A stretch of 64,000 nucleotides of DNA from Schmidtea nova (Eukaryota), in assembly GCA_044892505.1 (NCBI GenBank), contig CM097883.1, forward strand, positions 106,206,001 through 106,270,000, in the 5' to 3' direction. This document shows, in pieces, positions 1,646 through 35,558 of this stretch (positions are counted from its first letter, which is position 1; the number at the start of each line of letters is the position of its first letter). Below the pieces are notes generated by a model, which saw only the letters and a list, made by a program, of their open reading frames with translations, was not told the origin of the DNA and searched no databases. The position numbers and the translations under genes were made by a program.

Positions 1646-1686
1646 ATATTATAAATGTCATTAAAATATCATTAAAATATCATTAA

Positions 1687-6254: not shown

Positions 6255-6431
6255 TAACCAGGGTATTTATGCCTTGTTTGGTTTCTCAGTCCCTATTTTA
6301 TTGTTAAACAACTGCACCCTCATCCTTACTCATTCCACATACATCCAAAACCAAAACAAAACCCTTTTAAATGGATACATATATTTTTGATTTACAACAG
6401 ATGTTCGTACATTGGGGTGTCGTCCTCGTGA

Positions 6432-7067: not shown

Positions 7068-8732
7068 GTTGCTCTGAAACGGAATTTTAGGTTAACTGAC
7101 AGACTCTATCATCGACCATCGATTTTATGTCGATCAACCTACTTGGTTTATCGTCTATTAGCCGTAGGCCTTAGTAGCTCGCATATAATTTACTAGACCG
7201 TTGGTCGCGATGTTCATGTAGGTTGTGACTTTACCTAGGTGAGTTGATTCACTCCGCAATTTCAGACGGTTTTAGCTACGCTAATTTTGGCTTCTTATTT
7301 ACAATCAATTTATGTTACATTTAATTTTTCACCGATCATTTCCATTCACTCAACATAGTTCATTTACAGATCATCATCAGCAACTATCAAGGTTCTCGTC
7401 ACGGGGAAAATTTAGTCATCCCTTAGTCAACTGCTTTGTTGAGGGACCCACTAATTTTATCTACTATCGGGTCTGACTTTTCATGCCCTTAGTGGATTAT
7501 ATGTATATATCTGGCAGCTCATTCGATTCACGACTACCCCTTGGTGTTAATGTCTTTCGGCCGCGATGTTACGTTTTGCCTATCTCGATGCTCATCGACT
7601 TTTGATGTACCAGCACTCCTTGAAGGTATACCCCCTCATCAAGGTACTTCATGCATATATCTTCCCTTGCGAAATGAACTTTACCTTGAGTTGATTTATG
7701 GTCATTAACTGTCACCCGATACCCCGTCATCGTACTGTATAGCATTTATACTAGGCTATCGCTACCTTGATTTAGTTCATGATCATTAGGTCTTACTCGA
7801 TACCCTATGTGCATCCCCCTTTTCCCCTCATCAAGTATTTAGTAAACTTATGGTCCCGCCGCATCAGCACCTCACCACCGATAAGGTGTGTTGCGCTGAG
7901 AGGCCAAAGAATCCGTCAGGCTGCTAGGCCTCCGGAAAACCTTATTGATTTTATCATGATTATGATTATTATGAGGGTTTAAATAATTAACAATAAAACT
8001 CAACCATACTTGTATTTGGCTTCCAATCGATTTTACAATGTCTTCCGTAAGAGTGACTGTTGTACTGATTTACCTTCAGTAAAAATGACCTCCTATTTCT
8101 CTATTTTTACTGATTTTACTTCAGTATTTATACTCAACCGGTGTTGTTGGTCAGCCAATCAGCATCGAGTATGTGTGTATGTTTGCTTCATTATTTTGTG
8201 TTGCCGGCTTTTTGGTGCCTAACTCAACTCAATGATTTATTTGGTTAATCATGCGGTAAGTTTATTTTTGTATGATTTAATTTTTATTTGATTTTGTTTT
8301 AGCTCTTCGGTGACATCCGCCCACGCGCTGTCATATTCCGATTTTATTTGCTTCGCATGAGTGAGTTATGAAGATTTTTGTTGTTTTTATTAATACTCTA
8401 TTTCTTTTAGATGTTGCCGCCTATTTTATTACACTTTGGTGTTGGTAATTTATTTTGTTGTTATTCTGTTGTAAATTTATTTTATTGATTGTATATTATT
8501 TTTAGATGCTGCTCGATTTGGCTGGCCCAACATCACTCGGGGTCCCCTAAAATTGCGTCCCGCAATTACATGCATATACCTACATCAACATACATAAAAA
8601 GTTCGTGACAGAACTTACATGCCAAACCACATAAGGTGGTAGCTTTTATACACATTTTTACACATACACATTGTCATTGTCATGTTTATATTGTTACACA
8701 GTTCAATGTTTCTGGCTCATAGGGGTCGATTT

Positions 8733-9257
8733 TCAGGTCCTTTCACTGGATGACTGCATTTCGTATCGGGCTTGGATTTGTCGCAGATGACTTCTCATTC
8801 TTTGTTGGGTTTTGGCTTCTCTTTTGGCGCATCTACACATTATCGTTTGTTGTTGTTTGAGGCTTCTGATTCGGTACAGGGTATACGTGATCACTATGAT
8901 CAAGATGATTGTCAATATGGTCATTGTGACTATTCCCACGATGATCCATCTGTTTCGGATTTCGTATTCGATTTGGGTTTGACCTTTGATTGGCTTTAGG
9001 TGATCTTGAAATGTTCTATGGATTTCTCTGATCTTCTCGATTTGATTGAGTAGGGTTTGTAAGGGTTTGCGATGATCATGACTGATTCGCATTTGTCGGA
9101 TTAATTGTTTCAAGTCTTCTCTGACTTCGTTTAGTTGTTTTTCGATCTCCTGGGATATCTCATTTGACAGGGTTCTTTGGATTTCGGTTGTCGTACAGTT
9201 CGTGATTGCTGCTGTTAACATAATAGTTAGGATTGGTAGGGTTTTGAGCCAGTTCAT
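8733..9257 (-). CDS. Accessory 174-aa type I membrane protein (signal peptide, coiled-coil ectodomain, TM, basic tail)
   Basis: Hydrophobic N-terminus MNWLKTLPILTIMLTAAIT, heptad region, TM WIIVGIVTMTILTIILIIVITYTLY, then R/K-rich tail with CRC. Confidence 0.75.
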   Translation of the reverse strand: MNWLKTLPILTIMLTAAITNCTTTEIQRTLSNEISQEIEKQLNEVREDLKQLIRQMRISHDHRKPLQTLLNQIEKIREIHRTFQDHLKPIKGQTQIEYEIRNRWIIVGIVTMTILTIILIIVITYTLYRIRSLKQQQTIMCRCAKREAKTQQRMRSHLRQIQARYEMQSSSERT

Positions 9258-9330
9258 TTCTGATTATTCCACTGATTAATACAGGTTACATCGATTTGTA
9301 CATTTTTACACACGGATTTTTTGCCTCTTT

Positions 9331-10503
9331 TTACACATCCGTCTCCTCTGGTTCATGGAACCCTTCATCTTGGAGTTCCATTGGTGGTGGTGGTATAAAC
9401 GGTAACCACACCACTCTACTTCTCCACATTGCAATTTCGTCTTGATACGTTCGAGAGATTTGTATCTCTTCATCTAACAGATACTCCATATAGTCTGATT
9501 GTTCGCTCAGAGTTTCAATTTGTCTTTCCATTTCTTCCACTTTTCTCTTCAGGGCTTCTGTTTCTGTTGGTTCGGTTTCTATTTCTGGGGTTTCTTTCTC
9601 TGCTTTCAGGGTTATTATTTGTTGTTTCAGCTCCTCGTTTTCTTTCGTCAAATTCGTTATGTTTTCCTCGTAAGCTCGGTTTGATTCCGCATGTCTTTCT
9701 TTCACTGCTTTCAACTCCATTTTCTTTTGGGTCACTACTCCTTGATAGCCATTTACATCTCTTTCCAGGCTTTCTTTTTCCCTGATCAACTTTTGTCTTT
9801 CTGCTTCCTCTTTCTGTCTAATGCCTCGCATTTCTCCGTTTATTATCTGTATTTGCCATTGCGTTTTCTTTAGTTCCTTTGCTTGTTCTCGAATAAATCG
9901 CTGTCGTTTTCGACTCCATTCTTTGTTGGTCTGTTCTTGTCGCTTTCTCTGTTCCAATTCCTCTTTCAATTCGTCTATCTCTTGATACAATTTCCAATCT
10001 TCGCTGTGTGCTGTCCTTCTGATTATCTCTTTGGCTTCTTTATACACTCGTTTCGACTCCATCTTCCAATGTCTCGCTTGAGCCTTGATTGCTAGTATTT
10101 TTACCTCCATCTTTTCCTCTTGTTTCTCCCTCTCTTCTCTTCGCGTTTTCATCATATTTTTATAATGTTCTGCTTGTTTCCTCATCAACTGATAGGTCTC
10201 TTCTATCTTCTGTCGACTTCGTGAATTCGTTCCTTTTAGCTTCTCTATTTGTGTTGTCAGTTGTACTATCTCTTTATTTACTTCCTCGAGTTCTAGTTGA
10301 TATAACTCCATTCGTCTTTTGCATTTTAGTTTCTCGTAGAAATTGTTTGTCATCACTTCGTGTAATTCTCTGGTTCTTTGTTCTACTTCCACTTTACATC
10401 TCTTTTCGATTTCTCTTTCGATTTCTCTTTCTATTGCTTCTTGTTCGTTTGACATCTCGTTTCTCGTTTCATCTTCGATTACATGTTCATTTGCGTTTTC
10501 CAT
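9331..10503 (-). CDS. Accessory 390-aa long coiled-coil protein, unknown function
   Basis: E/K/R/Q-rich heptads almost throughout. C-terminus WLPFIPPPP...ETDV. Confidence 0.75.
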   Translation of the reverse strand: MENANEHVIEDETRNEMSNEQEAIEREIEREIEKRCKVEVEQRTRELHEVMTNNFYEKLKCKRRMELYQLELEEVNKEIVQLTTQIEKLKGTNSRSRQKIEETYQLMRKQAEHYKNMMKTRREEREKQEEKMEVKILAIKAQARHWKMESKRVYKEAKEIIRRTAHSEDWKLYQEIDELKEELEQRKRQEQTNKEWSRKRQRFIREQAKELKKTQWQIQIINGEMRGIRQKEEAERQKLIREKESLERDVNGYQGVVTQKKMELKAVKERHAESNRAYEENITNLTKENEELKQQIITLKAEKETPEIETEPTETEALKRKVEEMERQIETLSEQSDYMEYLLDEEIQISRTYQDEIAMWRSRVVWLPFIPPPPMELQDEGFHEPEETDV

Positions 10504-10592
10504 TCTGTAATTTACAAATTTACCCTTGTTATATTATACGTTTATTGTTGTCGTTGATTTTTACACTTTATTTACAGGGTCGTTCACTCTGA

Positions 10593-12005
10593 CTACTCCA
10601 ACCATCCTTTCGTCGACTTCGTGTTCATCGCTGCTGTACTTGTTTTCTTTTCGATTTCCAACTCTACGTATAGGTTGTCGTCGTACAACATTTCCCACAT
10701 TTTTTGGTGTGGTATGAATTTTGGTTCTCCTGTTGCTAGTGAACATTCTGTGGTTGGTCTTTTGTAAGCTTCATGCTTACCATCAATTTTGAATATCCTC
10801 ACGATCGTTTCTTTCGAGTTTTTGACCCTCATTACCGCCTTTGTCTCTAGCGGCCATTCTAATATGTCGTCGTAACCCCCTTTACACAACGCAAAGAATA
10901 ATGACACATGCGTTTCCTTTCCTGATCCATCTTCATTTGGATAAATTCTCATCCGGACTTTGTATCCGTTTTTCCACAGATAGAATGGTGGACTTGTTAC
11001 TGACACTTGACTTCCTGCTTTTGCTGCTGCGAACCTTTCGTTGAAGTTCTTGATTTTCCATACATATGGTGCAACAGGTAAACTCTCAATATCCTCTGCA
11101 TCTCGTATCCACATTTGATGTCGCACGTTTACTTCTTTTACCAATGTCTCTATGACTTTGATTTTCTCCATCATTTTCTCTCTGGTGAGCTCGAATTGCT
11201 CTCTCGTTTCCAGTAATAACTCCGTCATTATCCTCTGAGATTCAATTTCTTTCCTCAGTTTCTGTATGGTTTGTTCCATTCCGTTCAAATTTTCTGTTAA
11301 CATCTCTGCGTGTTGTACCGTCTCTGTTTCTAAATGCTCTTTCATTTCTTTGCTCGTTTTCTTTACTACACATCCTTGTTTGCTCCATACGCACTTTCTT
11401 GGCCTTGCTTCGCACTGCTCCCAATGTTCTTTCAACATCACCTCTTCTCTGGCTCCACAATTACTTGGACAAATTCCTCTGAATTTTCCGCACACTTTCT
11501 CTTCTGCTACGTTGAGATGCTCTGTTACAATTACTTCTCTCGTCTCTCTTTGTTCGCAGTATTGACACTCTATTATCTCTGCCTTGCACTCATCCTTGTG
11601 ATTTTTCGACTGCTTGATGGTTATCGTCTGTTGACACTTTTCACATATCGCTTTCTTGTTTTCGCATTTCTCCAGATGTTGTCTTAGCTCGATTATTTGT
11701 CCTTTCCATTCACATGGTTGGTTTATACATTCTGTTTTTATCTTCCAGATCTCCTTTTGTATTGCTTTGTCTGGTTTCGTCTCGTTGATTAGTAGTTTAT
11801 CGCCACACTCGGGACACTTTCTTGTCTCACTTTCACTGATTATTTGCAATATACACTTGGTGCACATCCTGCATCCACATTCCGTTTGCCTCGGTTTTAA
11901 CAGTAGATTTTTACACTTTACACACGTCACATTTACTCCCCATTGTCGATTCTCTCTTCTTAGAATCTCGATCGTTTGGTAATCTGCTTCGCTTTCTGCT
12001 CTCAT
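10593..12005 (-). CDS. Full-length intronless TRAF-family protein (RING, TRAF zinc fingers, coiled coil, MATH/TRAF-C), 470 aa
   Basis: RING CVKC..KPRQTECGCRMCTKC..CPEC; TRAF fingers C..PCEWKG..L..HLEKC, CPSNCG..EHWEQC, CVWSKQGC..EHL; MATH YVWKI.NF, SPPFY...GYKVRMRIYPN.DG.GK.THVSLFF..CKG.YDDILEWP, G.PKFI, DDNLYV. Confidence 0.92.
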   Translation of the reverse strand: MRAESEADYQTIEILRRENRQWGVNVTCVKCKNLLLKPRQTECGCRMCTKCILQIISESETRKCPECGDKLLINETKPDKAIQKEIWKIKTECINQPCEWKGQIIELRQHLEKCENKKAICEKCQQTITIKQSKNHKDECKAEIIECQYCEQRETREVIVTEHLNVAEEKVCGKFRGICPSNCGAREEVMLKEHWEQCEARPRKCVWSKQGCVVKKTSKEMKEHLETETVQHAEMLTENLNGMEQTIQKLRKEIESQRIMTELLLETREQFELTREKMMEKIKVIETLVKEVNVRHQMWIRDAEDIESLPVAPYVWKIKNFNERFAAAKAGSQVSVTSPPFYLWKNGYKVRMRIYPNEDGSGKETHVSLFFALCKGGYDDILEWPLETKAVMRVKNSKETIVRIFKIDGKHEAYKRPTTECSLATGEPKFIPHQKMWEMLYDDNLYVELEIEKKTSTAAMNTKSTKGWLE

Positions 12006-12095
12006 TCTACAACAATATTTACATCAATTTCCCCATATTTTTGATTTTTTCTGGTTCTTTATTTACACGTATTTACACAATTTTCCGCTTATTCA

Positions 12096-12446
12096 CTATA
12101 CATCCTCAGTTGAATCTGGCTCTGGATACACGTCTATCTCATTTACAATCCAGCTCGTCCAACTATCCGGTATCTCTTCCTCTTCATGTCTCGTTAATCG
12201 GTCAATTTCCTCTGCTTGCCAATTGTTCACTTCATTCAATGTTCGGTTCTCGTTCTGTAATTCGTTTATCTGTATTTGTTGGATCTCGATTTTGTTCATT
12301 GCTTCGAAATTACAGTTATAACTTTCGGTTAATAATTGCGTTTTGGCCGTCAACTGGCTCTGTAATTCGTTTATTGTTCTGGCTAGCAGGTCACATTGCA
12401 CTTTCCATCTTGTCATCATCGACATCTCTGTGGTTTCTTGATTCAT
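12096..12446 (-). CDS. Accessory 116-aa coiled-coil protein with acidic, Trp-containing tail
   Basis: ATG ORF with repeated INELQ heptads, placed co-directionally between other accessory genes. TAG acceptor 7 nt before the ATG. Confidence 0.65.
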   Translation of the reverse strand: MNQETTEMSMMTRWKVQCDLLARTINELQSQLTAKTQLLTESYNCNFEAMNKIEIQQIQINELQNENRTLNEVNNWQAEEIDRLTRHEEEEIPDSWTSWIVNEIDVYPEPDSTEDV

Positions 12447-12569
12447 CGTTTTTCTAGATTATATACATCATTCTCTTTTTTCTGTTTTTATGTTTTATAA
12501 TATTTATACCCATACGTATACGGTTATGCATTGGTTTTTACACTACTATTTACACTCATATTCCACCCT

Positions 12570-13832
12570 CTATACAATCACTACTGGTTTTTCTTCGTAC
12601 AGTTCCTCGTCCTCGATCTGTACCCACATCTCTTCATGTTTTGATCGTCTTTTCAGCTCTTCTCGTACTGCTTTTGGTAGTTTTATGTTGTAATTCGTGA
12701 CCTTAACTTCTGGCCATTTTACTGCTATGGTCTTATTTCTCATGCCATATCTCCAACATACTATCATGATCGTTATCAGCGGTATACACGCTATGAATAC
12801 TCCCATGCTGATTAATCCCATTATTGTTTTCCCGATGCTCATTTTCGGAGCTTCACTTTGGTTTATCATCACGCCATATTGACCTTTCCATTCCGCTTCC
12901 CATTGTTCATATTGTTGTTGTCTCTGTCTGACTTCTTCGATCACTTTCTCTGGTTCCCATTTTTCTTGTTGATTTGGTATTGTTTCTTCCTTCTCGTTTT
13001 GTTCTCTCTTCTGACTCAATTCTCGGAATTCTAACTTTCTGATTCTCCTCGTTATCGTCGTGTTCCTTGGCGTGTAATAGGTTTCGCACCTTTCTTGTTG
13101 ATTTCCTTGTGTATCCACTTCTTCAATTGCACACACTTCGTATTCTGCGTTTGTTTTCAACTTCCTCATTTCTACCTCGATTATTTCTCCTTTGTCATCT
13201 GCGGTCTTTTGACAACTTCGTGGAGACTTTCTCATACTGTTTGGCATTAATGTCCAACAGATTTCTAGGACCTTTTTATGGATCTTCCATATTATCAACG
13301 TTATTGATTCCGGTTCGTTTTCTATTGTCGTCCCTTCTGTTGTTACCTGTTGAACTCCTTGACTGTTGGTTGTCGTGGTTTTTCTTGACTTTCTTTTCCT
13401 CTGTCGACTTCCTTCCATTTCGATCGTTCTTGTTCCGTTAATTTGCTCTGGCGTCTTGTACAGTTTGCACTCCCGGCTTCTTTGTATTATTTCCTTTATT
13501 CTTCGGATTACGCAAATTTCATATGCTTGTCCGACTTCGAATCCATTTAGTTGAAACGGGATTCCCCGTTCTCTCGTTCTGCATTGCGGTATTACGTTGT
13601 TGGTCGATATTCCGATGTATTTTCTCCAACACATCCCAATTGTTCTCCGACCAATGTTTTTTATCTCCACTGTTACTACTTCATTCGCAATCGTTTCTTG
13701 ATCTTGTTTCTTTCTTTTTGGGAACTCAATTATCTCCTTTGCTTGGAACACTTTACACTCGCTTGTTCCTGGTCTGTTTCCGTTTGCTGCTTTTTCCATG
13801 AGGCATAGTTCACATGTTTTCTCTGTTTCCAT
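12570..13832 (-). CDS. FN3-like repeat membrane protein (420 aa as annotated); in frame with the polyprotein beyond one TGA
   Basis: Repeats with pattern (I/C)W...L...YE(I/V)C...C..Y.T, TM IMGLISMGVFIACIPLITIMIVCW, cytoplasmic tail ..LYEEKPVVIV. No stop between 13937 and 13833 in the polyprotein frame. Confidence 0.72.
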   Translation of the reverse strand: METEKTCELCLMEKAANGNRPGTSECKVFQAKEIIEFPKRKKQDQETIANEVVTVEIKNIGRRTIGMCWRKYIGISTNNVIPQCRTRERGIPFQLNGFEVGQAYEICVIRRIKEIIQRSRECKLYKTPEQINGTRTIEMEGSRQRKRKSRKTTTTNSQGVQQVTTEGTTIENEPESITLIIWKIHKKVLEICWTLMPNSMRKSPRSCQKTADDKGEIIEVEMRKLKTNAEYEVCAIEEVDTQGNQQERCETYYTPRNTTITRRIRKLEFRELSQKREQNEKEETIPNQQEKWEPEKVIEEVRQRQQQYEQWEAEWKGQYGVMINQSEAPKMSIGKTIMGLISMGVFIACIPLITIMIVCWRYGMRNKTIAVKWPEVKVTNYNIKLPKAVREELKRRSKHEEMWVQIEDEELYEEKPVVIV

Positions 13833-13937
13833 TTCAGTTATCTCGATTTCCTCATTTGTCTCTGCCTCTTGACTTTCTCTTGTTTCGCTGATTCCAATTA
13901 CCTCATTGTTTCGTCCCCAACATCTTCCATTCGTTGT

Positions 13938-16900
13938 TCATTGGTCTTGGATGTTTACTAACGTCATCACGCTGATATCTATGTCCTCCATGATTCTCTT
14001 AATGAGAATTAATATTAATGCTACACATATCAATTCTGGTTGGAATGTTAATTTGCCCGCTGAATTTTTGGTTATTCTTTCTTTCTCCGTTCGGTTTCCG
14101 ATTCCTTCTTCTGCTTCAGATTGATTCTTCCCTTTCTCCGATTCCACTTCTGTTCTTCTCGTTGTCTCTTCGCTTCTTTTCCCAATCCATTTCTGTATCT
14201 TCAGCGCTTCTGTTGCTTTATATAATTGACATGCAGTTACTTGAGGTGCTTTTGGTTCTCCTCTCTGCTTTATTGCGCATATTATGTATGACTTTTCTTT
14301 CTCCAATCCTTTGATTTGGATGACGTCTCGCTTCAGATCTGACAATATACACTTCAGCGTGTCGTTTTTCTTCAGGTTTTCTTTCCAGCATATTCTTTCG
14401 TATACTTCGTTTCCTCTGATTATTTCCAGCGTGACGTATTGTTTCTTGGCTTCTCCTTGTCCGATGATTGTTATCAATATCGCAATACACAACATTTCTG
14501 GTCTCAAAAGTAGACTTCCTGTTCGTTTTCCATAATTCGTACGTTCGTCTTTCGTTCCTCTGTTTTCTCGTTCTTCTGCTTCTCCTTTCTTGTCGTTTCT
14601 TGTTGGCTTTGGTTCTTCCTGTCTTTCTTTTTCATTATCCTCTGTTCTTTTGTTGTCATTGTCTTCGTTGTTCTTTTCGTTGTTACTTTTGTCGTCGAAA
14701 TCTCTGTAACCACCCCCTGGTCCTTTGAAAATGTCGTCCTCGACATTAATTTCTTTAATCAATCTTTCATACGCTTGAACCGCGAGTGTGCTAGACTCGA
14801 ATTCCCGTATTTCCATATCTTTGGATGGTTCTATGTCTTTTAGTCTACTTTGCTTTATCGTTTCTTTGGCATCTGTCCATTCATTCACATATTTTCTGAA
14901 CAAGTCTTTCCATCTTCCCGTTCGTTCGGGTTCCTTTGGATTGTTCGTGAATTTCAAATCTCTTCTCTTCAGGAATTCTTCAACTATCTCTGGCTTTTTG
15001 TGTCTTAATAACGCGCTTCTGATACACCAATTCTGATTCTGTTCCATATGGTCATTGATCTTGAATGCCGGTTCCTTGGTGATCGGATTCACCCATGTTA
15101 GTAATGCTCTTGTCTTCTCTATGTCGTGTATCATTACTGTTAGACTGAAGTTCTTTACGTTATTTGCCAGGTATTCGATATCCTCTTGTTTATTGATGGA
15201 CTTTATGAACTTGATCATCTCGAAGTTGTTCCACTGTATTGCGATATCTATGATGGAATTGTTCTTTCCATTTTTCCCTTCGATTTTGGCTCCTGCTTCG
15301 TATAACTCGTGTAGCACTTTCAATTTCGTCTTCTTTCTTGCTGCGATTATCATGATTGTGTCTCCGTTATCATCAACCATATTCATATCTGCTTCGCACT
15401 TTACCATTGCTTTTGTTATTTCTAGCGCTTCGTTTTCTTTCTTTCGACGTAATGCCCAGTGTATCGGCAATCTCCCATCCTTTGATAATAGGAATGTTAC
15501 TGGCATTTGATTTTTGATCGTTTCTATGTCACTCTCGTTATAATCTCCTTGTGCGTATCTGTGCACTTTCTCTGTAATTGCTCCTAGTATCTCCAACGAG
15601 TTTTTATTCTCCTTGAATTCTGATAGTCTTTCCTGCGCTTTTGCTACGATTGCGTCTAGTCTCTCTTGATTATCAGCTTTTGCATTGAACAACACTGCTT
15701 TGCTTCTTATTCGCGTTTGCATCTGTTTCATTCGTTGGTCTTGATACACTGCTTGTCTGAAGAACTGTCCATATTTCAATGCTTCTATCAGCTCTTTATA
15801 TCGCTTGCTTATTTCTTTGTGCTGCTTTTGGATGTCATAAAAATGTTCGAAGCTCATATCCGGATTCCATTGCTTATCACACCATTTCTTGATTAATCCG
15901 AATAGTTCTTTCTTCCTGTCTTCCAACTTGTATTCTCTTGGGTTTTCGCTAACCCGTAACGTATCTCTCGCTATTAACACTGCAAGTGTTTTTGGATCGT
16001 ATGTTACCTCTAGTAGATGTTTCAGTAACGCATTTTCTCCCCTTATGAACACTTCATTACAATCTATGACCCACGAATCTCCTTCTGGTCGTTTCCACTT
16101 TAGCAATATTCTCCAGGTTTTACTGTTTCTTACTCCGATTGCTTGTTTCATGATCGATCCTCTAGTTAGTTCATCGATTTCCCACGTGGCATTTTCCGTA
16201 ATATACTTTAGTATTCGGTGATTTGCTCTGTCAATTGCATGATTCAAGAATGTTCGTCCTTCTTTATCCTTTGCCATCCAATTCGATCTGGTGTTTCCGA
16301 ATAACTTGATTATTTCATCGTTTCTTCCATGAATTGCTATCATCATTAGTGGAGTGATTCCTTCCCAATTCACTTTGTCAATTTCTCCTCCACCTTCGAG
16401 TATCATCTCTACGATCTCTTTCACCTTCTCGTTTCCCCCGTGCTTGATTGCATTGTGCAACGCGGTATTACCGTCTTTGTCTTGTAGATTCAATGTTTGA
16501 GGGATTTCCTCTAGCAGCGTTCTTGTTATTGGATGTGCTGTTCTATCCTTCGCATACTCCATTACATTTTTTCGAACTTCTGACAGTATATTGAAATCGT
16601 GCCACCATTTCCATTCTGGTATAATTTCTCTGGTTTTCTTTGCCAGTTCTTTGATATCTATTATCTCCCTTCGGTTGTCTTCTAGACTTGTTTGCGGCTT
16701 TTGTTGTACTCGCAACATATTGATTCTCGCCGTCTGTGATCTTGTCATCACCCGTTTCTCTGGTGATAGAGTTGCTGTCTTTGGTATTTTCCTGCATCGA
16801 CATGCATTCACGTATATTGGTCTTACCAATGGATTGTTCACCAATCGTACTCGCACATTATTTTCATTTACTGTTGTGATTTCGTATGGCCCTTTGCCTG

Positions 16901-19900
16901 GTCGTTGGAGTTTCTTGACCGTACCGGGTATTATCTCTGGTGTCTCGACTATCACCCAATCTCCAACTTTTAAATCATGTGCTTTCACATTCTTTTTCTG
17001 ATCATGCAGATCTTTGTAACTCTCTTGATAGAACTTGATGTTTAGTTCCGCCGTTTTCCAGATTTCTTGCATTCTTTCTTTGAACTTTGTAACGTAATCG
17101 TCAACCTCCATGTACTGTGATAATGGTGGTTGGTATTCCAAATCGATCGGTAAGTTGCAATCTCTTCCGTACATTAGTTGGAATGGACTTAGCTTTGTTG
17201 CCGCATGTATTGACATTCTGTATGCCATTAAACACAAGTTGATATATTCGTCCCAGTCGGTTTGATGTTTACTGACGTAATTCGACAACATGCGTATCAA
17301 TGTTCCATTGAACCTTTCTGTTTGACCGTTCGTTTGTGGATGGTATGGGGATGTTCGTAATTTCGCAATTCGGAAGTAATTCGTGACTTCGTCTAATATT
17401 TCACTCATGAAGTTGGTTCCTTGGTCCGTTAGGATTTTCTTGGGTGTTCCGTATCTGCAGCATATCTCTTCTACCAATATTCTCGCGACTGTTTTTGCTT
17501 TTTGATCTGGTATTGCGAATGCTTCTGGGAACTTTGTTAGATAGTCCGTAACTACTAAGATATACTGATTCCCCTTTAAACTTTCTGGCAATGGTCCAAC
17601 TACGTCCATTGCTATCGTTGCCATCGGTTCTGCGGGTATTGGCATTGGTTTTAGTGGTGTTTTCCACTTCGTTCCGACGTTCTTTCTTGTCGCACAGGTT
17701 AAGCAGTTCTTTATCCATTCTTTCACATCATCTTCCATGGTTGGCCAAAAATACTTTTGTCTCAATCTCCCGATTGTCTTTTTCGCTGACATATGTCCGC
17801 CTAATTTTCCGTCATGATATTGAGTCATGATTTCCTTTCGCCTATTCGCAGGTAAGCACATTAATCTTCGTTCTCCATCTTGTATCAATAACCATCCTTT
17901 TTCCATCACATATCGGTGCTGATATTTCTGCATATGTTCGCGTAACGCTTGGTCCTTGCCGAATATTTCTATTTCCCTTTCTTTCAAATACTTGCTGATC
18001 AATCCCAACTCCTCATCTTCGATCTGCTCTTTCCTTAGTTCGCTGAAATCCAGATCTTCCGCTATTAATGCACATATTTTTAGAGTATTCAGGTTCACCA
18101 ATTCTGGGAATGTAAACCTTGACATGCAATCCGCGTTTGCATTTGCTTTTCCTGCTTTAAACTTTATGAATGGCGAGTATTCCTGCAACTGCATCGCCCA
18201 ACGCATCAATCTACTTGATGATTCTTTATGTTGACCTAACCATACTAATGGTTGATGATCCGTTGTGATATATATTTCATGACCCCACAATAGGTATTTG
18301 AAATGCTTGATTGCCAATATTATCGCATAGGCTTCTCTTTCCGTGACTGAGTAATTCCTTTCATGCTTCCTGAACGTTCGACTGTAATATCCAATTACTC
18401 TTTCCTTGCCTTCTTCGTCAAATTGGCCTAGTACTGCTCCTGCTGCATATCCACTTGCATCTGTTGCCAACAGAAATGGCTTCTTAAAATCTGGATGGAC
18501 CAGTATTGGTGCTGTAATCAGCTTATCTCGTAATGTTTCAAATGCTGCTTGCTGTTCTGCTCCCCATACAAACGACACATCTTGTCTTACCAATTCTTGC
18601 ATTGGTTTTGATATTCCTGCATAGTCTTTGATAAACTTTCGATAATATCCACACAATCCCAAAAATTCTTGTATTTGAGTCACTGTCTTTGGTGGTGGAC
18701 ATTCTTTGACCTTTTCGATATTCCTTGGATCTGGTTCTTTTCCTTTTGCTGATACGATGTGACCTAAGAATGTCACTTTCTCTTTTGCCCAATCGCACTT
18801 TGACGGCTTCAGTTTCAGTTTCCACTGTCTCAATTTCACGAACACATTTCTGATGTCTTGTAAGTGATCTTCAAATGTTGCGGAGTAGATCAATAGATCG
18901 TCGATATACACCATGCATTGTTTTATGCCATGTGTTACGAAATTCATGCATCTCTGGAATGATGCTGGCGCGTTTGTTAACCCAAACGGCATTTTCTTGA
19001 ATTGGTACAGATCTCGTCCGATTGTAAATGCTGTCTTCTCTTTATCCTCGTCTTTCATTTTGATCTGCCAATATCCGCTTTTTAAATCCAGTGACGTGAA
19101 ATAAGCTGCTCCTTGTAACGTCAATAACATTTCATTTATGTCTGGCAGTGGGTACGTATCTCTTTTCGTAACTGCGTTCAATCGTCTGTAATCGATACAG
19201 AATCTCTGAGTTCCATCCTTCTTTTTCACCATCACCACTGGGAATTGCCAGGGTGAGCAACTAGGTTCGATGACCTCTGCATCTAACATCTTTTGTACCT
19301 CTTCTTCTGCCACTGCTTTTTGAGCTTCTGCCAGTTTATATGGTCTTAATGCTATTGGCGTTTCGTCCGTCAACGGTATCGTGTGTAAGGTTACGTCACA
19401 TGTTCCTAAATCCAGATCTGATGCTGCGAATATATCTTTATATTCCATCAACAGTTTCTGTAACTGTTCTTTTTGTCGTTCGTCTAACAACACACTGTCG
19501 ATTTTCCATGGTAATTCGTCTTTGCTTTTCTCGTTCTTGTCTGGTATTTCGATTTCGGACATGGGTGTCAATTTACCCAATCTCTCATTCTCGTATATTA
19601 TCTTGTCCTCTTCGTCGAAGTTTACCAGATTAATCGGTATTTCTCCTTCTTGGTTTATCGTGACCAATTCTCTTGCCATTGGTAATTCTTTCTTTGCTTC
19701 GAACTTCTTACTGGGTTCGAATATCATGTCTCCTTTTATTGTTGAATCGATCTTGACATAACACATCATTTCATGTCTCGCTGGCACTACTATTTGTTCC
19801 GCACTTGCTACTTTAACTTTCATTCTGCAGATTTTTCCTGTTCTGTCTTTTAGCTTCATTGCTCCTAGATCAATTACGATTTCCTTGAACAGGTCTGGCA

Positions 19901-27476: not shown

Positions 27477-28354
27477 CCCGATTCCACTATCTTGGAATAC
27501 TGTACTAGTTTTCTTTGCTTCTAGTTCACCACTTGTTTCTGAATTCGACTCTTCTTCTTTACTACTCTCTGTTTCGTTATCTCTTGATTTGCTTCTTGTT
27601 CTGTTTTCCCTGACTAGTTCACTGTCTATCGTCTCTACTTCGTTTTGAACTTCTAGATCTTCTGGGGTTTCTTCTTGGTTCTCTTTATTACTCGAATTAT
27701 CGCTGATCTCTACTTGTTTGTTCTTTTGTTGCTTAGGCTTGTTACCTGTTCTTGTTCTTTTTGCTGCTTTTCTTTCGGCTTCCGTTAAGATTGGTATTAT
27801 ACCTGATCTTGTTTCTCGTCCCTCAATTTTGTCTATTCCTCAATTTCTTATATTCTCCACTGATTTTCTACTCTGCTTTTGCTTTGCTTCTTCTTTGATT
27901 TGTTTCCTTTGATTGCTCTGACTGCTAGATTGCCTTGAATTGTTTGATTGATTTGTTTCCTTAAAACAAATAATCACTTACACGATACGTCCCCGTTATC
28001 GTGTTTCTCGTCCCTCTCACGGGTGTAGTCATAATTCATGAAGATCCCCATTTTTCCCATTTCCCTTGATTTTAAGTCTATTTAAATTATCTATGCAGTC
28101 GTATCAATTATCTATTCTTTATCAAATACACCAATTACTTTTCCCCAGTTTCCCAATTACTTTGTCGCTCAGCGCTCTTATTATTCCCTTTACTTTTCTC
28201 AGGCTTCTCTGGCTCTGAGTTCAAATTTTCCCCTTATCTGTCGACTACTCTGTTTCTCAACTATTCGCTTTATTTCCTATTCACACTACGTTTACTACTT
28301 CATTTCAATTCTCATCTCTACTCACCTTTAATTCAAGCGACATCTCTCGTTGGC

Positions 28355-28816
28355 CTGCTGGGTTTTCTAGTCAGCGCTTTTAATCTCACCTTTTATCTCG
28401 AACTCTGTTTCTCTCAACTTCACTCATTATCTCATTAGCCTGCTGGGTTTTCCAGTCAGCGCTTTTAATCTCACCTTTTTCTTCTGCTTCATTATTCTCG
28501 ACCTCAATTGTCGTTTCATTAGCCTGCTGGGTTTTTCCAGTCAGCGCTCTTATTATCCACCCTTTATCTCTTCACTGTCGACTTTTACCTGCTCTTTACT
28601 CCGATGATCATCACTTTTGACCTGCTGGGTCTTCCAGTCAGCGTCCTCAATTTTACCACTTTATTATTACTCACTTTTATTCTCTCGATCTTTCCTGATC
28701 GTTGCCATTGACCTGCTGGGTTTTCCAGCTAGCGTCTTTACCACTTCTCCCGTCTTAACAAACCGGTTTCATTTTATTCTCATCGAATCTCATGGTCTGC
28801 TGGGTTTTCCAGTCAG
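28355..28816 (-). repeat. Six spaced copies of a 20-nt hairpin motif in the leader upstream of gag
   Basis: CTGCTGGGTTTTCCAGTCAG variants at 28355, 28440, 28524, 28622, 28713 and 28797. Confidence 0.9.
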
Positions 28817-29144
28817 CACCCTTCACTTACTCACTTTACTTTACTACTCCTCTGTATGCATACTTTCACCTCATTAGGCCACATAATCAGCTTTACTCGC
28901 ATTTATCAATACCTAGGTGCGCACCTTCAACTCTCTCGTTATTAATTCGGTTTCTTTCAACCCTTATTCCTCATTATTCGCTATTCATTTTCACTATTCA
29001 TCATTTATCCTCATTATCACTTATTCATTTCCATTATCGCTTGTTGATCTTCACTATCCGGATAGTTTTATACGTAATTTAGTCCTCATCTGCCTCACTT
29101 CGTCGTCTTTCTCGTGGGCTTTTACTCAATATTTTATTTCGAAC

Positions 29145-29780
29145 GAGAACTATGCTCACCGTTGAGAACTATGCTCACTGACGAGAACTATGCTCACTGA
29201 CGAGAACTATGCTCACTGACGAGAACTATGCTCACTGACGAGAACTATGCTCACCGACGAGAACTCTGCTCGCTGACGAGAACTATGCTCACTGACGAGA
29301 ACTATGCTCACTGACGAGAACTATGCTCACTGACGAGAACTATGCTCACTGACGAGAACTATGCTCACTGACGAGAACTATGCTCACTGACGAGAACTAT
29401 GCTCACTGACGAGAACTATGCTCACTGGCAAAACATGGTTGTTATGAGGATTCTGCTTACTGATGGAAACTCTTTGCTCCGGGGACTATGTTCCCCGATG
29501 AGAACTATGCTCACTGATGGTGACTACAGGAATTATGTTTCCTGATGAGAACTATGCTCACTACGATGACTATGTTTATTGATGAGAACTACGCTCACTG
29601 ATGAGGACTATGTTCGCTGGTCTTGTATTTATTAATGAGAACTCTGCTCACTACGGGATTTATATTTACGGACGAGAACTATGCTCACTATGATGTTGTG
29701 TTTTATGACGAGACCTACGCTCACTAGGATGTTATTTTTATGACGAGACCTATGCTCACTATGAGACCTATGCTCACGAA
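29145..29780. repeat. 19-bp tandem repeat (GAGAACTATGCTCACTGAC): 15 contiguous units (29145-29429), then degenerate spaced units
   Basis: Counted directly; unit starts at 29145+19n through 29411. Confidence 0.97.
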
Positions 29781-30478
29781 CGAAAACTCGAAATATCATC
29801 TCTCAGTGGTTGCATGTGTTGCTTCGGGATGTTCCTCCCAGTGGTCACTTATGCTTCTTCGGAGAATCTATTGTCGCGTTTCGTTAAGTTCTATCTTTCA
29901 AGAACTATGGGCAAATCCTTTCTCTTTAGGACCCCTTTTATCATTTCCTTTCTTTCAAGGAATTCGTTTAATCCTCGAGTTTTCCCTTTCGCTCGGTTCA
30001 TCTATTACACCCCTTTATTCTGTTATCTATTCATCGACTTCTCTACTTGATTTTACTTTATGCGAGCTGATTACGTGCCTTTCATCATATACCACATTTC
30101 TCTACTCATCTTACTCATTTCATTGCTTTATCTCTCTCTTTACTGATCAGTTTTAACATCCTTTTTTTATAGTTTTTCTGCGCGCGCCTAAACCTCGTTG
30201 AGTTGTCCCTACCTTTCACCCCAACCAAAATATATAAAAAGATCGCATTGGTCCACTGATGCACGATGTGGTGATCAATCACATCACAAGAGCTTTCCAA
30301 TATCCGCGATTGGCCCCTTTCTACACATTTCGGGTAAGTTGATCAGTTGGTTCCCCCCAATGGGTGCTTATCGGACTACTCGTGAGTAGCTCATAATTAC
30401 TTAGGTCATTTTTACCAAATCATCTTTGAACCCTCATAATTTCAATAACAACTGCACTTGCTCAAAACTTTATTTCTA

Positions 30479-30937
30479 CTACAAGTACACTGTTATTTTC
30501 TCGGATACGGGAAGGTTGCACATAGGACATCGTTCATTTATTTTACATTCATTACAGAATCGGAAATGCCCACATGGCAACAACATTATCTGTATCTTAT
30601 TCATTTCACAGATATAACACATCAGATATTGTCTCGTATGTTCTGTTGTTATTCTTATCCACTCATCGTGTTTTGTTGTTAACTGTTGTTCTAGCCTGTG
30701 GCACTCGATGTTCATCTCAGGGTTGTTTAATCTTTCTCTATACCATTGATATCGTGTTGCTGTATCCACTGTGTTCTTATTCTCACTTAAGCTCATCATC
30801 CTTTCAGCTCTTTCTGTGTTGTTTGTCGGTTCGTGATATTCTCCTACCTCGAGTCTTTTTAACTTTCTCGTTATTGTCTCCACTGTCTCGTGGTTTGTTT
30901 CGAAAAACGTTTGCATTTCTTTTATTTTGTTCTCCAT
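30479..30937 (-). CDS. Accessory 152-aa coiled-coil protein with C-terminal IAP/XIAP-type RING finger (no BIR)
   Basis: CYICEMNKIQIMLLPCGHFRFCNEC..NERCPMCNLPVSEKITVYL-stop matches the terminal C3HC4 RING of IAP/MDM2-like ligases. Confidence 0.85.
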   Translation of the reverse strand: MENKIKEMQTFFETNHETVETITRKLKRLEVGEYHEPTNNTERAERMMSLSENKNTVDTATRYQWYRERLNNPEMNIECHRLEQQLTTKHDEWIRITTEHTRQYLMCYICEMNKIQIMLLPCGHFRFCNECKINERCPMCNLPVSEKITVYL

Positions 30938-31466
30938 CCCCTGAATGAATTCTCATTAATTTTGTTATCGATTTTTATTTATTGTTTATCATTCCTATTC
31001 TATGGTAGCCCTACTGTTCGCTTTCTGTTGTTCTGTTTTACGTCGTTACTTGCGTATCCCCCCGTGTTCTTGAATGTCGCCCCGACATGATCATTGTTAG
31101 TTGCTCACACTCATACCATTTTCATGCACACTTTTCAGCATACTTTTACCTTACGTCATGCATACTTTTCATCACTTTTCATACTGTTACTCCACATACT
31201 ATTCATCATACTTCATTCGTCCTCATACTTCCATTCCATTATCATTCATACTTTCATTCTCATGCATACTTTCATCATGTTCATCAATCTCATTATTTTA
31301 CACTCATACTTTTATTTATTATTTTTCAACCCGATTCATTCTTGCTTCAGGACCCACAGTTATTATTTACTTTACTTTTCCTCGCTAAATTTAATTTCAT
31401 CCCGGTTCAGGCGCTCTAAACTGTCCGCAGATATCGAATTCACTTTTTCCCACAAAGATCGATTTA

Positions 31467-31484
31467 ATCCCGGCTGAGCCCCCA
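31467..31484 (-). promoter_or_regulatory. Primer-binding site complementary to tRNA-Pro 3' end
   Basis: Minus strand TGGGGGCTCAGCCGGGAT versus the classical tRNA-Pro PBS TGGGGGCTCGTCCGGGAT (16/18); lies just inside the 5' LTR. Confidence 0.9.
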
Positions 31485-31875
31485 AATTTATGCTGGTGTG
31501 TTGGTTAGATTGACAACGGAGATCCTTATGATTTTATACGTTAGGGTGATCTCGCCAACATAAAAACATTCCCCCGCTGACACCCATGATGCATCCCTAA
31601 CTACTCCTCATGTTGGTACTGTGTCAACGTTGTGAAATGACAAGGCAGGTGAGCAACCTTACGGCTACTATTCCCTTGTTTATTCACGGGTCCACCACTA
31701 CCGATAGAAGGTGTTTGTGGATTTCTTTCGGTCCCACTTATGCTCTTGTCTATTGTCCTAGGGTAATTTAATCTTAGCGCATCTGCTGTTCTTCATGAAT
31801 CCGGGTTTTAGTTATATTCAATTCTCAGACATTCCACAAACAAACAAGACAAGTCAACTCATTCATTTTATACAT

Positions 31876-32457
31876 TTATTTATAGTTTAACAATACAGAG
31901 GGCCTAATTACATTTAGTAGTTCTTGCTCGGAGAGACCACTGAGCAAGTCTACCTCTATTCCTACGCGATCTGCATATGCGCGTCTCTCCCTGCGTTTTT
32001 TCGCTCCCAAGCGATTCCTTCGTTTGGTCCTCTGCGATCCTCGTGGTATAGTTGTGGTCATCTCGGTTGCCGTGGTTACGGTTATCTCTTTGTCGGTTTG
32101 CGTACTCGTCGTCGCTGATGTCGAAGTTAACCATTTGTTGAAGGTACTCGTCCTAATCACTGGACGCAATTGCTCAACGATGAAATCTTGGGTCGACACC
32201 TTTAAATAATTGGCCAACTCTAACTTCAGGGCTGCGACCTCCCTTGCTTGTTCATCGATCGTTCGCTCCGCTCTGTATCGGGCCTGTAAGATGGCTTTAA
32301 CCCTCTCAGGATTAAACCACGTTGCCTTAATCCGCTGGTGCTCCTCGTTCAGTTGTCTCAAGCGACTCTCGAGGACACGAGATCGTGCTCTATGTTCGCG
32401 TGCCTCTTGCTTGTAATTTCGAGTGGGATTTTCGTCCATATCTGAGTAATGTATCAT
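31876..32457 (-). CDS. LTR-encoded 193-aa protein: coiled coil, Thr-rich linker, Arg-rich motif, Leu-rich tail (likely start at second Met, 32439)
   Basis: Intact ORF with RGSQRTKRRNRLGAKKRRERR. CTCAG acceptor 2 nt before the second ATG; AATAAA overlaps the stop. Confidence 0.65.
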   Translation of the reverse strand: MIHYSDMDENPTRNYKQEAREHRARSRVLESRLRQLNEEHQRIKATWFNPERVKAILQARYRAERTIDEQAREVAALKLELANYLKVSTQDFIVEQLRPVIRTSTFNKWLTSTSATTSTQTDKEITVTTATEMTTTIPRGSQRTKRRNRLGAKKRRERRAYADRVGIEVDLLSGLSEQELLNVIRPSVLLNYK

Positions 32458-32634
32458 TAACCAGGGTATTTATGCCTTGTTTGGTTTCTCAGTCCCTATT
32501 TTATTGTTAAACAACTGCACCCTCATCCTTACTCATTCCACATACATCCAAAACCAAAACAAAACCCTTTTAAATGGATACATATATTTTTGATTTACAA
32601 CAGATGTTCGTACATTGGGGTGTCGTCCTCGTGA

Positions 32635-33270
32635 TCAATTGTATGGTCGTAACTCTTGATCGGCCGGGTTCTCGTCTCGGCGAATCCCTGTTTCATGGTA
32701 TAGTTCGGGGGCCGGATTCCAACTCAGTTTGTTTTGATAAATGAACACCTCCCAGAGGCGAAGGTCTTTGGGCTCGGGGTGTTGATCCACGGAAATACTG
32801 CCTGGGGCGTTCGGGTAAACGAAGACTTCCCCAGTGTCACCACACCGAGGCCTGTCTAGCAGCAAATACCCGAGTTGACCGAATGCCTGCCCGGTCATCA
32901 TTCCGGTGCTTAGTACCCAGCGGGGTTGTTGGGTTTCATCTACAAATTGATAGAACCATCTTTCGCATCCATCTTTGGTGGGGTTTGGAGAGGGCGTCCA
33001 ATCGACATCGCCTTCCCACCTCAGCTGTAGTTGGAATGCACAGGCGGGAATACTTGCCGCTATGCTCATATGGGTCCTCGTCCATCGACGCAGGTGTCTA
33101 CGTGCGGAGTTGAAAATTTGTCGTGGGGCCTCCTTCTCTCCTTGGATCTCAGTAGGTAATTTTTGTGTGATGACGGAGCGGATGCGCCGTTTCCTCCGTA
33201 GAATGTACTCCTCTAATTTGACGGTTAGGGGTCCTACCGGCTCCTTCATGAGATATTCTGTTTTCCTCAT
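32635..33270 (-). CDS. LTR-encoded 211-aa protein of unknown function (5' LTR copy)
   Basis: Same protein as 6432-7067; the one difference seen inside it (6783/32986 area) is synonymous. Confidence 0.6.
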   Translation of the reverse strand: MRKTEYLMKEPVGPLTVKLEEYILRRKRRIRSVITQKLPTEIQGEKEAPRQIFNSARRHLRRWTRTHMSIAASIPACAFQLQLRWEGDVDWTPSPNPTKDGCERWFYQFVDETQQPRWVLSTGMMTGQAFGQLGYLLLDRPRCGDTGEVFVYPNAPGSISVDQHPEPKDLRLWEVFIYQNKLSWNPAPELYHETGIRRDENPADQELRPYN

Positions 33271-35558
33271 GTTGCTCTGAAACGGAATTTTAGGTTAACT
33301 GACAGACTCTATCATCGACCATCGATTTTATGTCGATCAACCTACTTGGTTTATCGTCTATTAGCCGTAGGCCTTAGTAGCTCGCATATAATTTACTAGA
33401 CCGTTGGTCGCGATGTTCATGTAGGTGGTGACTTTACCTAGGTGAGTTGATTCACTCCGCAATTTCAGACGGTTTTAGCTACGCTAATTTTGGCTTGTTA
33501 TTTACAATCAATTTATGTTACATTTAATTTTTCACCGATCATTTCCATTCACTCAACATAGTTCATTTACAGATCATCATCAGCAACTATCAAGGTTCTC
33601 GTCACGGGGAAAATTTAGTCATCCCTTAGTCAACTGCTTTGTTGAGGGACCCACTAATTTTATCTACTATCGGGTCTGACTTTTCATGCCCTTAGTGGAT
33701 TATATGTATATATCTGGCAGCTCATTCGATTCACGACTACCCCTTGGTGTTAATGTCTTTCGGCCGCGATGTTACGTTTTGCCTATCTCGATGCTCATCG
33801 ACTTTTGATGTACCAGCACTCCTTGAAGGTATACCCCCTCATCAAGGTACCTCATGCATATATCTTCCCTTGCGAAATGAACTTTACCTTGAGTTGATTT
33901 ATGGTCATTAACTGTCACCCGATACCCCGTCATCGTACTGTATAGCATTTATACTAGGCTATCGCTACCTTGATTTAGTTCATGATCATTAGGTCTTACT
34001 CGATACCCTATGTGCATCCCCCTTTTCCCCTCATCAAGTATTTAGTAAACTTATGGTCCCGCCGCATCAGCACCTCACCACCGATAAGGTGTGTTGCGCT
34101 GAGAGGCCAAAGAATCCGTCAGGCTGCTAGGCCTCCGGAAAACCTTATTGATTTTATCATGATTATGATTATTATGAGGGTTTAAATAATTAACAATAAA
34201 ACTCAACCATACTTGTATTTGGCTTCCAATCGATTTTACAATGTCTTCCGTAAGAGTGACTGTTGTACTGATTTACCTTCAGTAAAAATGACCTCCTATT
34301 TCTCTATTTTTACTGATTTTACTTCAGTATTTATACTCAACCGGTGTTGTTGGTCAGCCAATAAGCATCGAGTATGTGTGTATGTTTGCTTCATTATTTT
34401 GTGTTGCCGGCTTTTTGGTGCCTAACTCAACTCAATGATTTATTTGGTTAATCATGCGGTAAGTTTATTTTTGTATGATTTAATTTTTATTTGATTTTGT
34501 TTTAGCTCTTCGGTGACATCCGCCCACGCGCTGTCATATTCCGATTTTATTTGCTTCGCATGAGTGAGTTATGAAGATTTTTGTTGTTTTTATTAATATT
34601 CTATTTCTTTTAGATGTTGCCGCCTATTTTATTACACTTTGGTGTTGGTAATTTATTTTGTTGTTATTCTGTTGTAAATTTATTTTATTGATTGTATATT
34701 ATTTTTAGATGCTGCTCNNNNNNNNNNNNNNNNNNNNNNNNNNNNNNNNNNNNNNNNNNNNNNNNNNNNNNNNNNNNNNNNNNNNNNNNNNNNNNNNNNN
34801 NNNNNNNNNNNNNNNNNNNNNNNNNNNNNNNNNNNNNNNNNNNNNNNNNNNNNNNNNNNNNNNNNNNNNNNNNNNNNNNNNNNNNNNNNNNNNNNNNNNN
34901 NNNNNNNNNNNNNNNNNNNNNNNNNNNNNNNNNNNNNNNNNNNNNNNNNNNNNNNNNNNNNNNNNNNNNNNNNNNNNNNNNNNNNNNNNNNNNNNNNNNN
35001 NNNNNNNNNNNNNNNNNNNNNNNNNNNNNNNNNNNNNNNNNNNNNNNNNNNNNNNNNNNNNNNNNNNNNNNNNNNNNNNNNNNNNNNNNNNNNNNNNNNN
35101 NNNNNNNNNNNNNNNNNNNNNNNNNNNNNNNNNNNNNNNNNNNNNNNNNNNNNNNNNNNNNNNNNNNNNNNNNNNNNNNNNNNNNNNNNNNNNNNNNNNN
35201 NNNNNNNNNNNNNNNNNNNNNNNNNNNNNNNNNNNNNNNNNNNNNNNNNNNNNNNNNNNNNNNNNNNNNNNNNNNNNNNNNNNNNNNNNNNNNNNNNNNN
35301 NNNNNNNNNNNNNNNNNNNNNNNNNNNNNNNNNNNNNNNNNNNNNNNNNNNNNNNNNNNNNNNNNNNNNNNNNNNNNNNNNNNNNNNNNNNNNNNNNNNN
35401 NNNNNNNNNNNNNNNNNNNNNNNNNNNNNNNNNNNNNNNNNNNNNNNNNNNNNNNNNNNNNNNNNNNNNNNNNNNNNNNNNNNNNNNNNNNNNNNNNNNN
35501 NNNNNNNNNNNNNNNNNNNNNNNNNNNNNNNNNNNNNNNNNNNNNNNNNNNNNNNNNN

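Follow-up and report, generated by a model that had tools for sequence, protein, structure and literature searches.

The giant Gypsy long terminal repeat (LTR) retrotransposons of dugesiid planarians known as Burro or GYPSM1 exceed 30 kb in Schmidtea mediterranea and have multi-kilobase LTRs and a polyprotein of 4500-5200 aa (PMC6431247). The 64,000-nucleotide stretch of Schmidtea nova DNA analyzed here (contig CM097883.1, positions 106,206,001 to 106,270,000; referred to below as the window) contains, on its minus strand at 5288-34735, an element that by its sequence is a single Burro-like giant Gypsy LTR retrotransposon, a kind known from planarians. It resembles Burro/GYPSM1 in its length of about 30 kb, one huge polyprotein, tandem repeats, a mononegavirus-like fusion domain lying between gag and pol in the same frame, ankyrin repeats, MATH/TRAF, and accessory open reading frames (ORFs) (PMC6431247). 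At about 29.4 kb it is slightly below the S. mediterranea Burro elements (>30 kb), and its 4512-aa polyprotein falls within their range. Unlike Burro as described, it encodes TRAF in a 3' ORF of its own and has two ORFs within the LTR. BIR and BCL2-like domains, both of which vary among Burro families, gave no Pfam match in the element, although a BCL2-like stretch was seen by eye. The Burro account in PMC6431247 is silent on how accessory ORFs are expressed, and no splicing-based expression of these ORFs was described in the literature searched, outside whose scope lie Grohme 2018 and Jurka 2007 (both possibly relevant). The element class is already known; the new part would be the splicing-based expression of its accessory ORFs.

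A first-pass annotation had proposed that the element resolves an operon-like RNA into single-gene mRNAs, by spliced leader (SL) trans-splicing or by cis-splicing at several acceptors. We consider it likely (probability about 0.62) that one mRNA per gene is made by cis-splicing, through a single LTR promoter and leader combined with alternative acceptors and internal 3' ends. Transcription would begin at the single LTR promoter, near 34305; a leader of about 100 nt with a single donor would join one of eight acceptors; and each mRNA would end at a poly(A) signal after its ORF. The polyprotein would be made from a separate spliced mRNA, and unspliced read-through RNA would serve as the genome. 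The signals, their conservation, and one splice are established, and from these we infer the use of the other seven acceptors and of the 3' ends.

Complex retroviruses, such as HIV and foamy viruses, have a major donor near the cap and acceptors before their accessory genes and produce subgenomic RNAs without replication signals; in foamy viruses, pol is expressed from a separate spliced mRNA. The present element differs from them in that its donor is upstream of the primer-binding site (PBS), most of its ORFs seem to have their own 3' ends, some ORFs are embedded in the LTR, and no Rev-like regulator was identified. It is likely, by analogy, to work like the adenovirus major late unit, in which one promoter gives a transcript of about 28 kb with five poly(A) sites and an AUG-free common leader that is joined to many mRNA bodies (PMC7851563). 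However, adenovirus is an unrelated DNA virus, and for its genome a retroelement additionally has to preserve read-through RNA that is wholly unspliced and not polyadenylated. Cer1 of Caenorhabditis elegans is likewise a Gypsy element with a spliced subgenomic RNA, and consensus sites are skipped to make its long RNA (PMC3315495), but it has one spliced product compared to seven or eight acceptor-led genes here. SL operons of nematodes and flatworms likewise have tightly packed same-strand genes in which a poly(A) signal is followed by an acceptor (PMC12582326, PMC8629364). In contrast to these operons, the element has a used cis donor, and its predicted gap between cleavage and acceptor is below the median intercistronic distance of 99 bp in Schistosoma mansoni operons (PMC12582326).

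The LTR leader and the exact loss of intron 1

Three features of the 5' LTR, numbered from the first letter of the window, carry the argument.

34328..34362, minus strand: predicted LTR promoter, formed by a reversed CCAAT box (34362-34358) and a TATA box (34335-34328)
34213..34305, minus strand: predicted non-coding leader exon, about 100 nt, its start estimated at about 30 nt past the TATA box
33277..34212, minus strand: intron 1, 936 nt, from donor CAA/GTATGG at 34212 to acceptor TTTCAG

The LTR thus appears to have one promoter, a nearly AUG-free leader, and one major donor, the start position being an estimate. The CCAAT/TATA module is situated about 400 nt inside the LTR; CCAAT is found in 20/20 sister LTRs and TATA in 19/20, and both are alignable in six diverged LTRs. 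The leader segment is only 75% identical among sisters, yet it is ATG-free beyond TATA+36 in 18/19. The window and the six diverged LTRs, which are only partly independent, contain 1 leader ATG versus 17 expected, and an ATG at TATA+32, at or beside the presumed cap, occurs in 14 sisters. When the sister donor was taken as the first donor-like site >40 nt past the TATA box, its GT was present in all 19 intron-bearing sisters (13 with AAG/GTAATT, 3 with CAA/GTATGG, 2 with AAG/GTATGG, and 1 with AAG/GTATGT). The six diverged LTRs have a donor-like site 139-226 nt past the TATA box. A second donor-like sequence, at 34276, is kept in only 4/20 sisters and for this reason was not taken as the major donor.

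Evidence that this donor is used comes from copies that have lost the intron. In the twentieth sister (L130), the leader end is fused to the first base past the acceptor of LTR ORF1, and the intron, represented in its relatives by a GT...AG intron of 853-940 nt, is exactly gone. A genome-wide probe located the junction at three LTRs (C2:31021075, C2:30997636, and C3:55206076), i.e., both LTRs of one C2 copy, which are 99.95% identical to each other, and the 3' LTR of a C3 copy. Since the two junction copies differ in leader sequence (88 versus 110 nt), two events are likely. The other deletions that could be resolved, four of five in LTRs and one internal, all occurred at microhomologies off splice sites. 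The simplest reading is that intron 1 was lost through reverse transcription of RNA cis-spliced at intron 1, and the cis-splicing half of the first-pass proposal is supported by the conserved LTR donor and the two copies with an exact donor-to-first-acceptor junction. A pure SL operon, in which all acceptors would be trans-spliced and the donor of the element left unused, draws on the existence of an SL system in the host, but it is contradicted at the first acceptor by this exact intron loss in two independent copies, unless both were chance DNA deletions, and we regard it as scarcely tenable.

Genome probes for the leader joined to LTR ORF2, the RING ORF, gag, or the four 3' ORFs, made with AAAG-type leader ends only, returned no true junction, and 11 and 7 matches of the leader-exon probes were rejected as unrelated sequence. 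mRNAs spliced past the LTR would lose the PBS and could not be primed or copied into DNA, such that acceptors beyond the PBS would yield no genomic junction. Four sequencing runs behaving like genomic DNA contained no acceptor joint among the matches listed and are evidence neither way.

Diverged LTRs also contain a second acceptor-like site about 110 nt 5' of the ORF1 acceptor (L048:7850-7970, L055, L059, and L027); in L048 it is followed by a donor-like site, which suggests an extra mini-exon.

Acceptor-like sites before the accessory genes and gag

The seven accessory ORFs comprise two within the LTR, a RING ORF past the PBS, and four at the 3' end, including one that is TRAF-like.

32635..33279, minus strand: LTR ORF1, 211 aa, with acceptor CAG at 33279-33277; no Pfam match
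31876..32444, minus strand: LTR ORF2, 187 aa, ATG at 32439, with acceptor CAG at 32444-32442, conserved in sisters
30479..30943, minus strand: RING-finger ORF, 152 aa (Pfam PF13920), with acceptor CAG at 30943-30941
12096..12456, minus strand: 116-aa ORF, with acceptor TAG at 12456-12454, conserved in sisters
10593..12009, minus strand: TRAF-like ORF, 470 aa, with RING, TRAF zinc fingers, and MATH (Pfam) and acceptor TAG at 12009-12007
9331..10507, minus strand: 390-aa ORF, coiled-coil-like by eye, no Pfam match, with acceptor CAG at 10507-10505
8733..9262, minus strand: 174-aa ORF, N-terminal and internal hydrophobic segments by eye, with acceptor CAG at 9262-9260

The title of the first-pass annotation gave six such ORFs, while its text listed seven; all seven are real. 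The seven pairs of a YAG (CAG or TAG) and an ATG were found at the minus-strand coordinates that it reported, and its stop-to-start spacers in the 3' cluster (73, 89, 90, and 123 nt) are correct. In 7/7 accessory ORFs the YAG is 1-7 nt 5' of the ATG, compared to a YAG within 7 nt of 140/637 other sense-strand ATGs in the element (P = 2.5e-5 for 7/7; P = 5.8e-4 for at least 7/9 if the polyprotein ATG and a 420-aa ORF are counted as misses). The preceding sequence also has the character of an acceptor: five or more T among the 12 nt ahead of the YAG at 6/7 sites versus 57/798 background sites, on a strand that is A-rich; T at -5 at 5/7 (P = 0.0013); and a YTRAY branch-like motif with its A at -16 to -19, a window picked post hoc, at 5/7 versus 36/798 (P = 4e-6). 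At LTR ORF1, the branch-like sequence is TTAAC at -19. An unsupervised search upstream of 2472 TTNYAG sites in the flanking DNA found no host branch-point peak.

Conservation of the YAG in sister copies, which the annotation had named as a check, is nearly complete. In the 3' cluster it is kept at 19/19 copies of the 116-aa ORF, 18/19 of the TRAF-like ORF, 19/19 of the 390-aa ORF, and 19/19 of the 174-aa ORF; the RING acceptor is present in 19/19 aligned sisters; and YAG, 2 nt, and ATG are intact at LTR ORF2 in 15/15. The 3' spacers are 94-99% identical in 19 sisters versus 89-92% at third codon positions. The rule also extends to LTR ORF1 variants at 63-65% identity and to further LTR families. 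In a diverged family of the same genome (L047-L049), reached through its LTR ORF2 homologue, gene order is unchanged and a YAG is located 1-5 nt before 7/7 accessory ATGs (background, 48/228; P = 1.8e-5 for 7/7). Matched accessory proteins of this family have 28-53% identity, ORF1 was assigned by position only, and the RING context was taken from L049, since the ATG is lost in L047. A PF24664 search for diverged Burro copies yielded only smaller env-bearing Gypsy elements (all 5 of those picked). Together, these data support the proposal that the YAGs are splice acceptors for single-gene mRNAs.

Common descent contributes to this pattern, as some spacers are 70-78% identical between the two families. 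If the LTR splice alone were real, the 3' cluster would be translated by reinitiation or internal entry and the YAGs would be conserved for some other reason, which would also fit the lack of any junction beyond ORF1. However, the YAG keeps its distance of 1-3 nt to the ATG in spacers with no more than 53-61% identity, and the acceptor features are statistically significant; this explanation seems very improbable. Individual promoters are another possibility: each downstream ORF could have its own small promoter, optionally with a short local intron, and the YAG would be a local acceptor or an initiator-like motif. TATA-like hexamers are indeed found about 55 nt 5' of the 116-aa ORF in both families, and in two smaller env-bearing Gypsy families of this genome a 400-nt spacer contains, by eye, a TATA box, a donor, and an acceptor. 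Spacers of 73-123 nt nevertheless offer scant space for a promoter, donor, and intron; they contain, by eye, no CCAAT plus TATA module like that of the LTR; TATAAA is common on an A-rich strand; and the T-rich and branch-like features suit splicing more than initiation. Such promoters are, on this evidence, improbable. The smaller env-bearing families (L023, L027, L031, L035, and L039; LTRs of about 870 bp) have one 470-480-aa accessory ORF past the polyprotein; ahead of it lie an apparent internal TATA box, a donor (GTAATT), and an acceptor (TTTTAG).

The acceptor rule probably extends to the polyprotein, via its own spliced mRNA, as suggested by the sequence ahead of gag.

27477..27962, minus strand: candidate eighth acceptor TTTTAAG (last G at 27960), then a 483-nt segment without ATG ahead of the Gag start codon

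The 6.8 kb from the promoter to the Gag ATG contain 159 ATGs. The 483-nt segment is ATG-free in the window and in 23/23 sisters, and two diverged copies have TTTTAG followed by 579-580 nt without ATG. The candidate gag acceptor sits in a 556-nt stretch, the longest in the element without an ATG, where 3 to 7 ATGs are expected by composition. GTAAGT at 27981 was rejected as a donor, being absent from the diverged family, and the AUG of the SL was rejected as the Gag start, given an in-frame stop 39 codons past the gag acceptor in 23/23 sisters. At 27477-27839 (minus strand), a 121-codon in-frame extension 5' of the Gag ATG is open and ATG-free, open in 23/23 sisters, and by eye resembles diverged-family sequence; a non-AUG start is possible.

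Predicted internal 3' ends and the host spliced leader

The first-pass annotation placed AATAAA after several ORFs, and its six positions are correct. The signals are conserved, yet their enrichment is marginal. The AATAAA at 32500 lies just beyond a limit of about 130 nt from the stop, and two of the four 3' spacers lack AATAAA. The stop of LTR ORF2 is overlapped by AATAAA, followed by a GU-rich tract. A second motif, UGUA(A/C/U)A(A/U)A, is the most prominent signal after stops and occurs there 14 times in 1.2 kb versus 7 times in 25 kb elsewhere, an enrichment of about 40-fold; its minus-strand clusters at 8533-12575 and 31870-31880 of the window are consistent with 3' untranslated regions. 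It resembles the Pumilio element. Planarian poly(A) sites are reportedly without UGUA enrichment (PMC5068929), and the motif may therefore be an RNA-binding-protein site rather than a cleavage signal. As cleavage occurs 10-30 nt past AATAAA (PMC5068929), about 6-52 nt would be left before the next AG, and the branch region would be partly removed. The predicted cleavage zone in the 3' spacers would overlap or abut the next branch region, which suggests competition between forming a 3' end and splicing to the next gene.

The host has an SL system of its own. Three clustered SL-RNA-like genes (L119-L121, on C2 near 409.01 Mb, two of them mutually inverted) have a leader ending ATG/GT, an Sm-like site, and three predicted hairpins. 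Part of the SL has 1107 exact genomic matches, of which 91 were examined: none is an SL gene, 85 have a common upstream head, and they represent 51 different mRNA-like 5' ends. This dispersed family consists of a conserved head of about 150 bp, often past an AAT microsatellite, the full SL, and then varied host mRNA-like 5' ends. Its form suggests a mobile element that takes up SL-capped cDNAs and so builds a fossil SL library; partial leaders near mobile elements are described in parasitic flatworms (PMC12582326).

A hybrid operon is the main alternative. The LTR ORFs would be cis-spliced, and downstream genes, the four 3' ORFs in particular, would be cleaved at the upstream poly(A) signal and SL-capped, or the acceptors would take both leaders. 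Several lines of evidence favor it. First, SL RNA genes with a leader ending in ATG and many SL-bearing cDNA fossils are present in the host. Second, spacers of 73-123 nt bracket the S. mansoni operon median. Third, 66% of SL acceptors in S. mansoni are on average also cis-spliced (PMC12582326). Fourth, Cer1 offers a precedent of a Gypsy RNA, subgenomic in this case, being spliced to SL1 (PMC3315495). Fifth, host SL mRNAs often have their own ATG near the junction and out of frame: the first ATG is at most 7 nt from the junction in 19/51 ends (median, 14). For this reason ATG proximity is no mark of SL use, and we dropped the objection that an out-of-frame SL AUG would exclude it.

On the other side, none of the 51 distinct captured SL-mRNA ends is derived from the element, and SL-exon junction probes of the genome gave no true match for the element acceptors (6 matches were rejected as captured mRNA of other origin). 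These nulls are weak, because just 8% of matches were examined and element RNAs may be rare. The short distance from predicted cleavage to the next AG, with partial loss of the branch region, is a further difficulty. ATG offsets of 1 mod 3 are underrepresented in host SL mRNAs (6/39) relative to the element (6/14; Fisher P = 0.06, with orthologues that are not independent). An acceptor is mainly trans-spliced when it has no upstream cis donor (cited in PMC8629364); the LTR donor lies upstream in cis, which takes the element acceptors out of this class, although cleaved downstream RNA could still qualify. We consider the hybrid operon unlikely but credible. The specific division in which the LTR leader is cis-spliced to the first genes, and the 3' cargo (TRAF-like, coiled-coil, and membrane protein) is cut at internal poly(A) sites and recapped by the host SL, is similarly doubtful; a retroelement would in that case exploit host trans-splicing for resolving its polycistronic RNA. 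With no SL junction, 0/51 captured ends, and a donor present in cis, operon-type trans-splicing, the headline of the first-pass annotation, is unsupported, though it retains some likelihood at the downstream acceptors.

Several observations weigh against expression of all genes by cis-splicing from the LTR leader. To reach the 3' acceptors, 22-25 kb away, the donor would have to bypass several other acceptors and poly(A) signals. A genomic junction is found only at the first acceptor; the missing leader-ORF2 junction, to which the PBS argument is inapplicable, is a real but weak miss. The gag site is an AAG, the rarer acceptor type, and the branch-like motif is present at -15 to -22 in just 2/7 diverged-family acceptors. 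AATAAA is within about 130 nt of only 4/8 stops versus an 18% background (P = 0.04). Finally, flatworm acceptors often take both splice types (PMC12582326), so that one cis junction does not exclude SL use.

Element architecture, flanking DNA, and significance

The remaining features of the element are as follows.

31491..34735, minus strand: 5' LTR, about 3245 bp, outer end placed from the partner LTR
5288..8532, minus strand: 3' LTR, outer end placed from the partner LTR
31467..31484, minus strand: PBS-like 18-mer, 6 nt past the 5' LTR end
28345..29800, unstranded: tandem arrays with units of about 85 nt and 19 nt, between the RING ORF and gag
13938..27476, minus strand: 4512-aa polyprotein, from Pfam domain matches
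12570..13832, minus strand: 420-aa ORF, polyprotein tail past a frame break, no acceptor

Assignment to Ty3/Gypsy follows from the two LTRs, the PBS-like site, gag, and the order protease, reverse transcriptase, RNase H, and integrase. The PBS-like 18-mer is one that we take to match tRNA-Pro. The LTRs, about 3.2 kb each, are 99.8% identical across 3212 bp at an offset of 26203, and the 3' LTR copy of LTR ORF2 has a premature stop. Pfam matches in the polyprotein comprise Gag CCHC knuckles, a mononegavirus-type fusion glycoprotein, protease, reverse transcriptase, RNase H, integrase, and ankyrin repeats; the fusion-glycoprotein domain (PF24664, E = 7e-71) is in frame between the CCHC knuckles and the protease. 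The 420-aa ORF was rejected as an accessory gene, as its ATG reads ATA in 7/19 sisters. In 5 of the 8 sisters with a located stop, its frame continues for 938 codons or more without interruption; the ORF is the polyprotein tail, split in the window copy by a frame break, and the accessory ORFs therefore number seven.

At least 27 other copies of the 3' cluster were listed at 94-95% identity, and on this evidence the family is large and young. Copies with near-identical interiors have LTRs that are 82-96% identical (L123-L142); in the same set, LTR ORF1 variants share only 63-65% identity, and both LTR ORFs are gone from five copies. An Rfam scan across the window gave 0 matches.

Adjoining the 3' end of the element, window positions 1-4674 (plus strand) contain a Polinton-like fragment with a 943-aa ORF for protein-primed DNA polymerase B (PF03175) and part of a second copy. 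Adjoining the 5' end, at 35559-36460, is a degenerate tandem repeat with a TTGACCTACTT core. Further out are an intronless WD40 ORF (37824-38711, plus strand), a transposase-like ORF pair recognized by eye (47175-48511, plus strand), of which the 353-aa member has no Pfam match, and a nuclear-receptor zinc-finger fragment (50954-51451, minus strand). Elsewhere in the genome, C2 405-455 Mb contains a dense cluster of MATH-domain genes, separate from the element copies; it probably reflects an expansion of host TRAF genes, from which the TRAF-like ORF of the element may derive.

Planarian genomes contain abundant Burro elements, whose cargo is of ubiquitin and apoptosis type; BURRO1 RNA levels increase on PIWI knock-down (PMC8532177). 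The predicted junctions are exact and testable in existing planarian long-read data. If the proposal is true, a Gypsy retrotransposon would have reached the RNA processing of the adenovirus late unit (one leader, eight acceptors, and several 3' ends) with its unspliced genome still exported, which would imply an as yet unknown regulator controlling splicing and polyadenylation. Gain of cargo by these elements would then be explained as the acquisition of modules, each consisting of an acceptor, an ORF, and a poly(A) signal.

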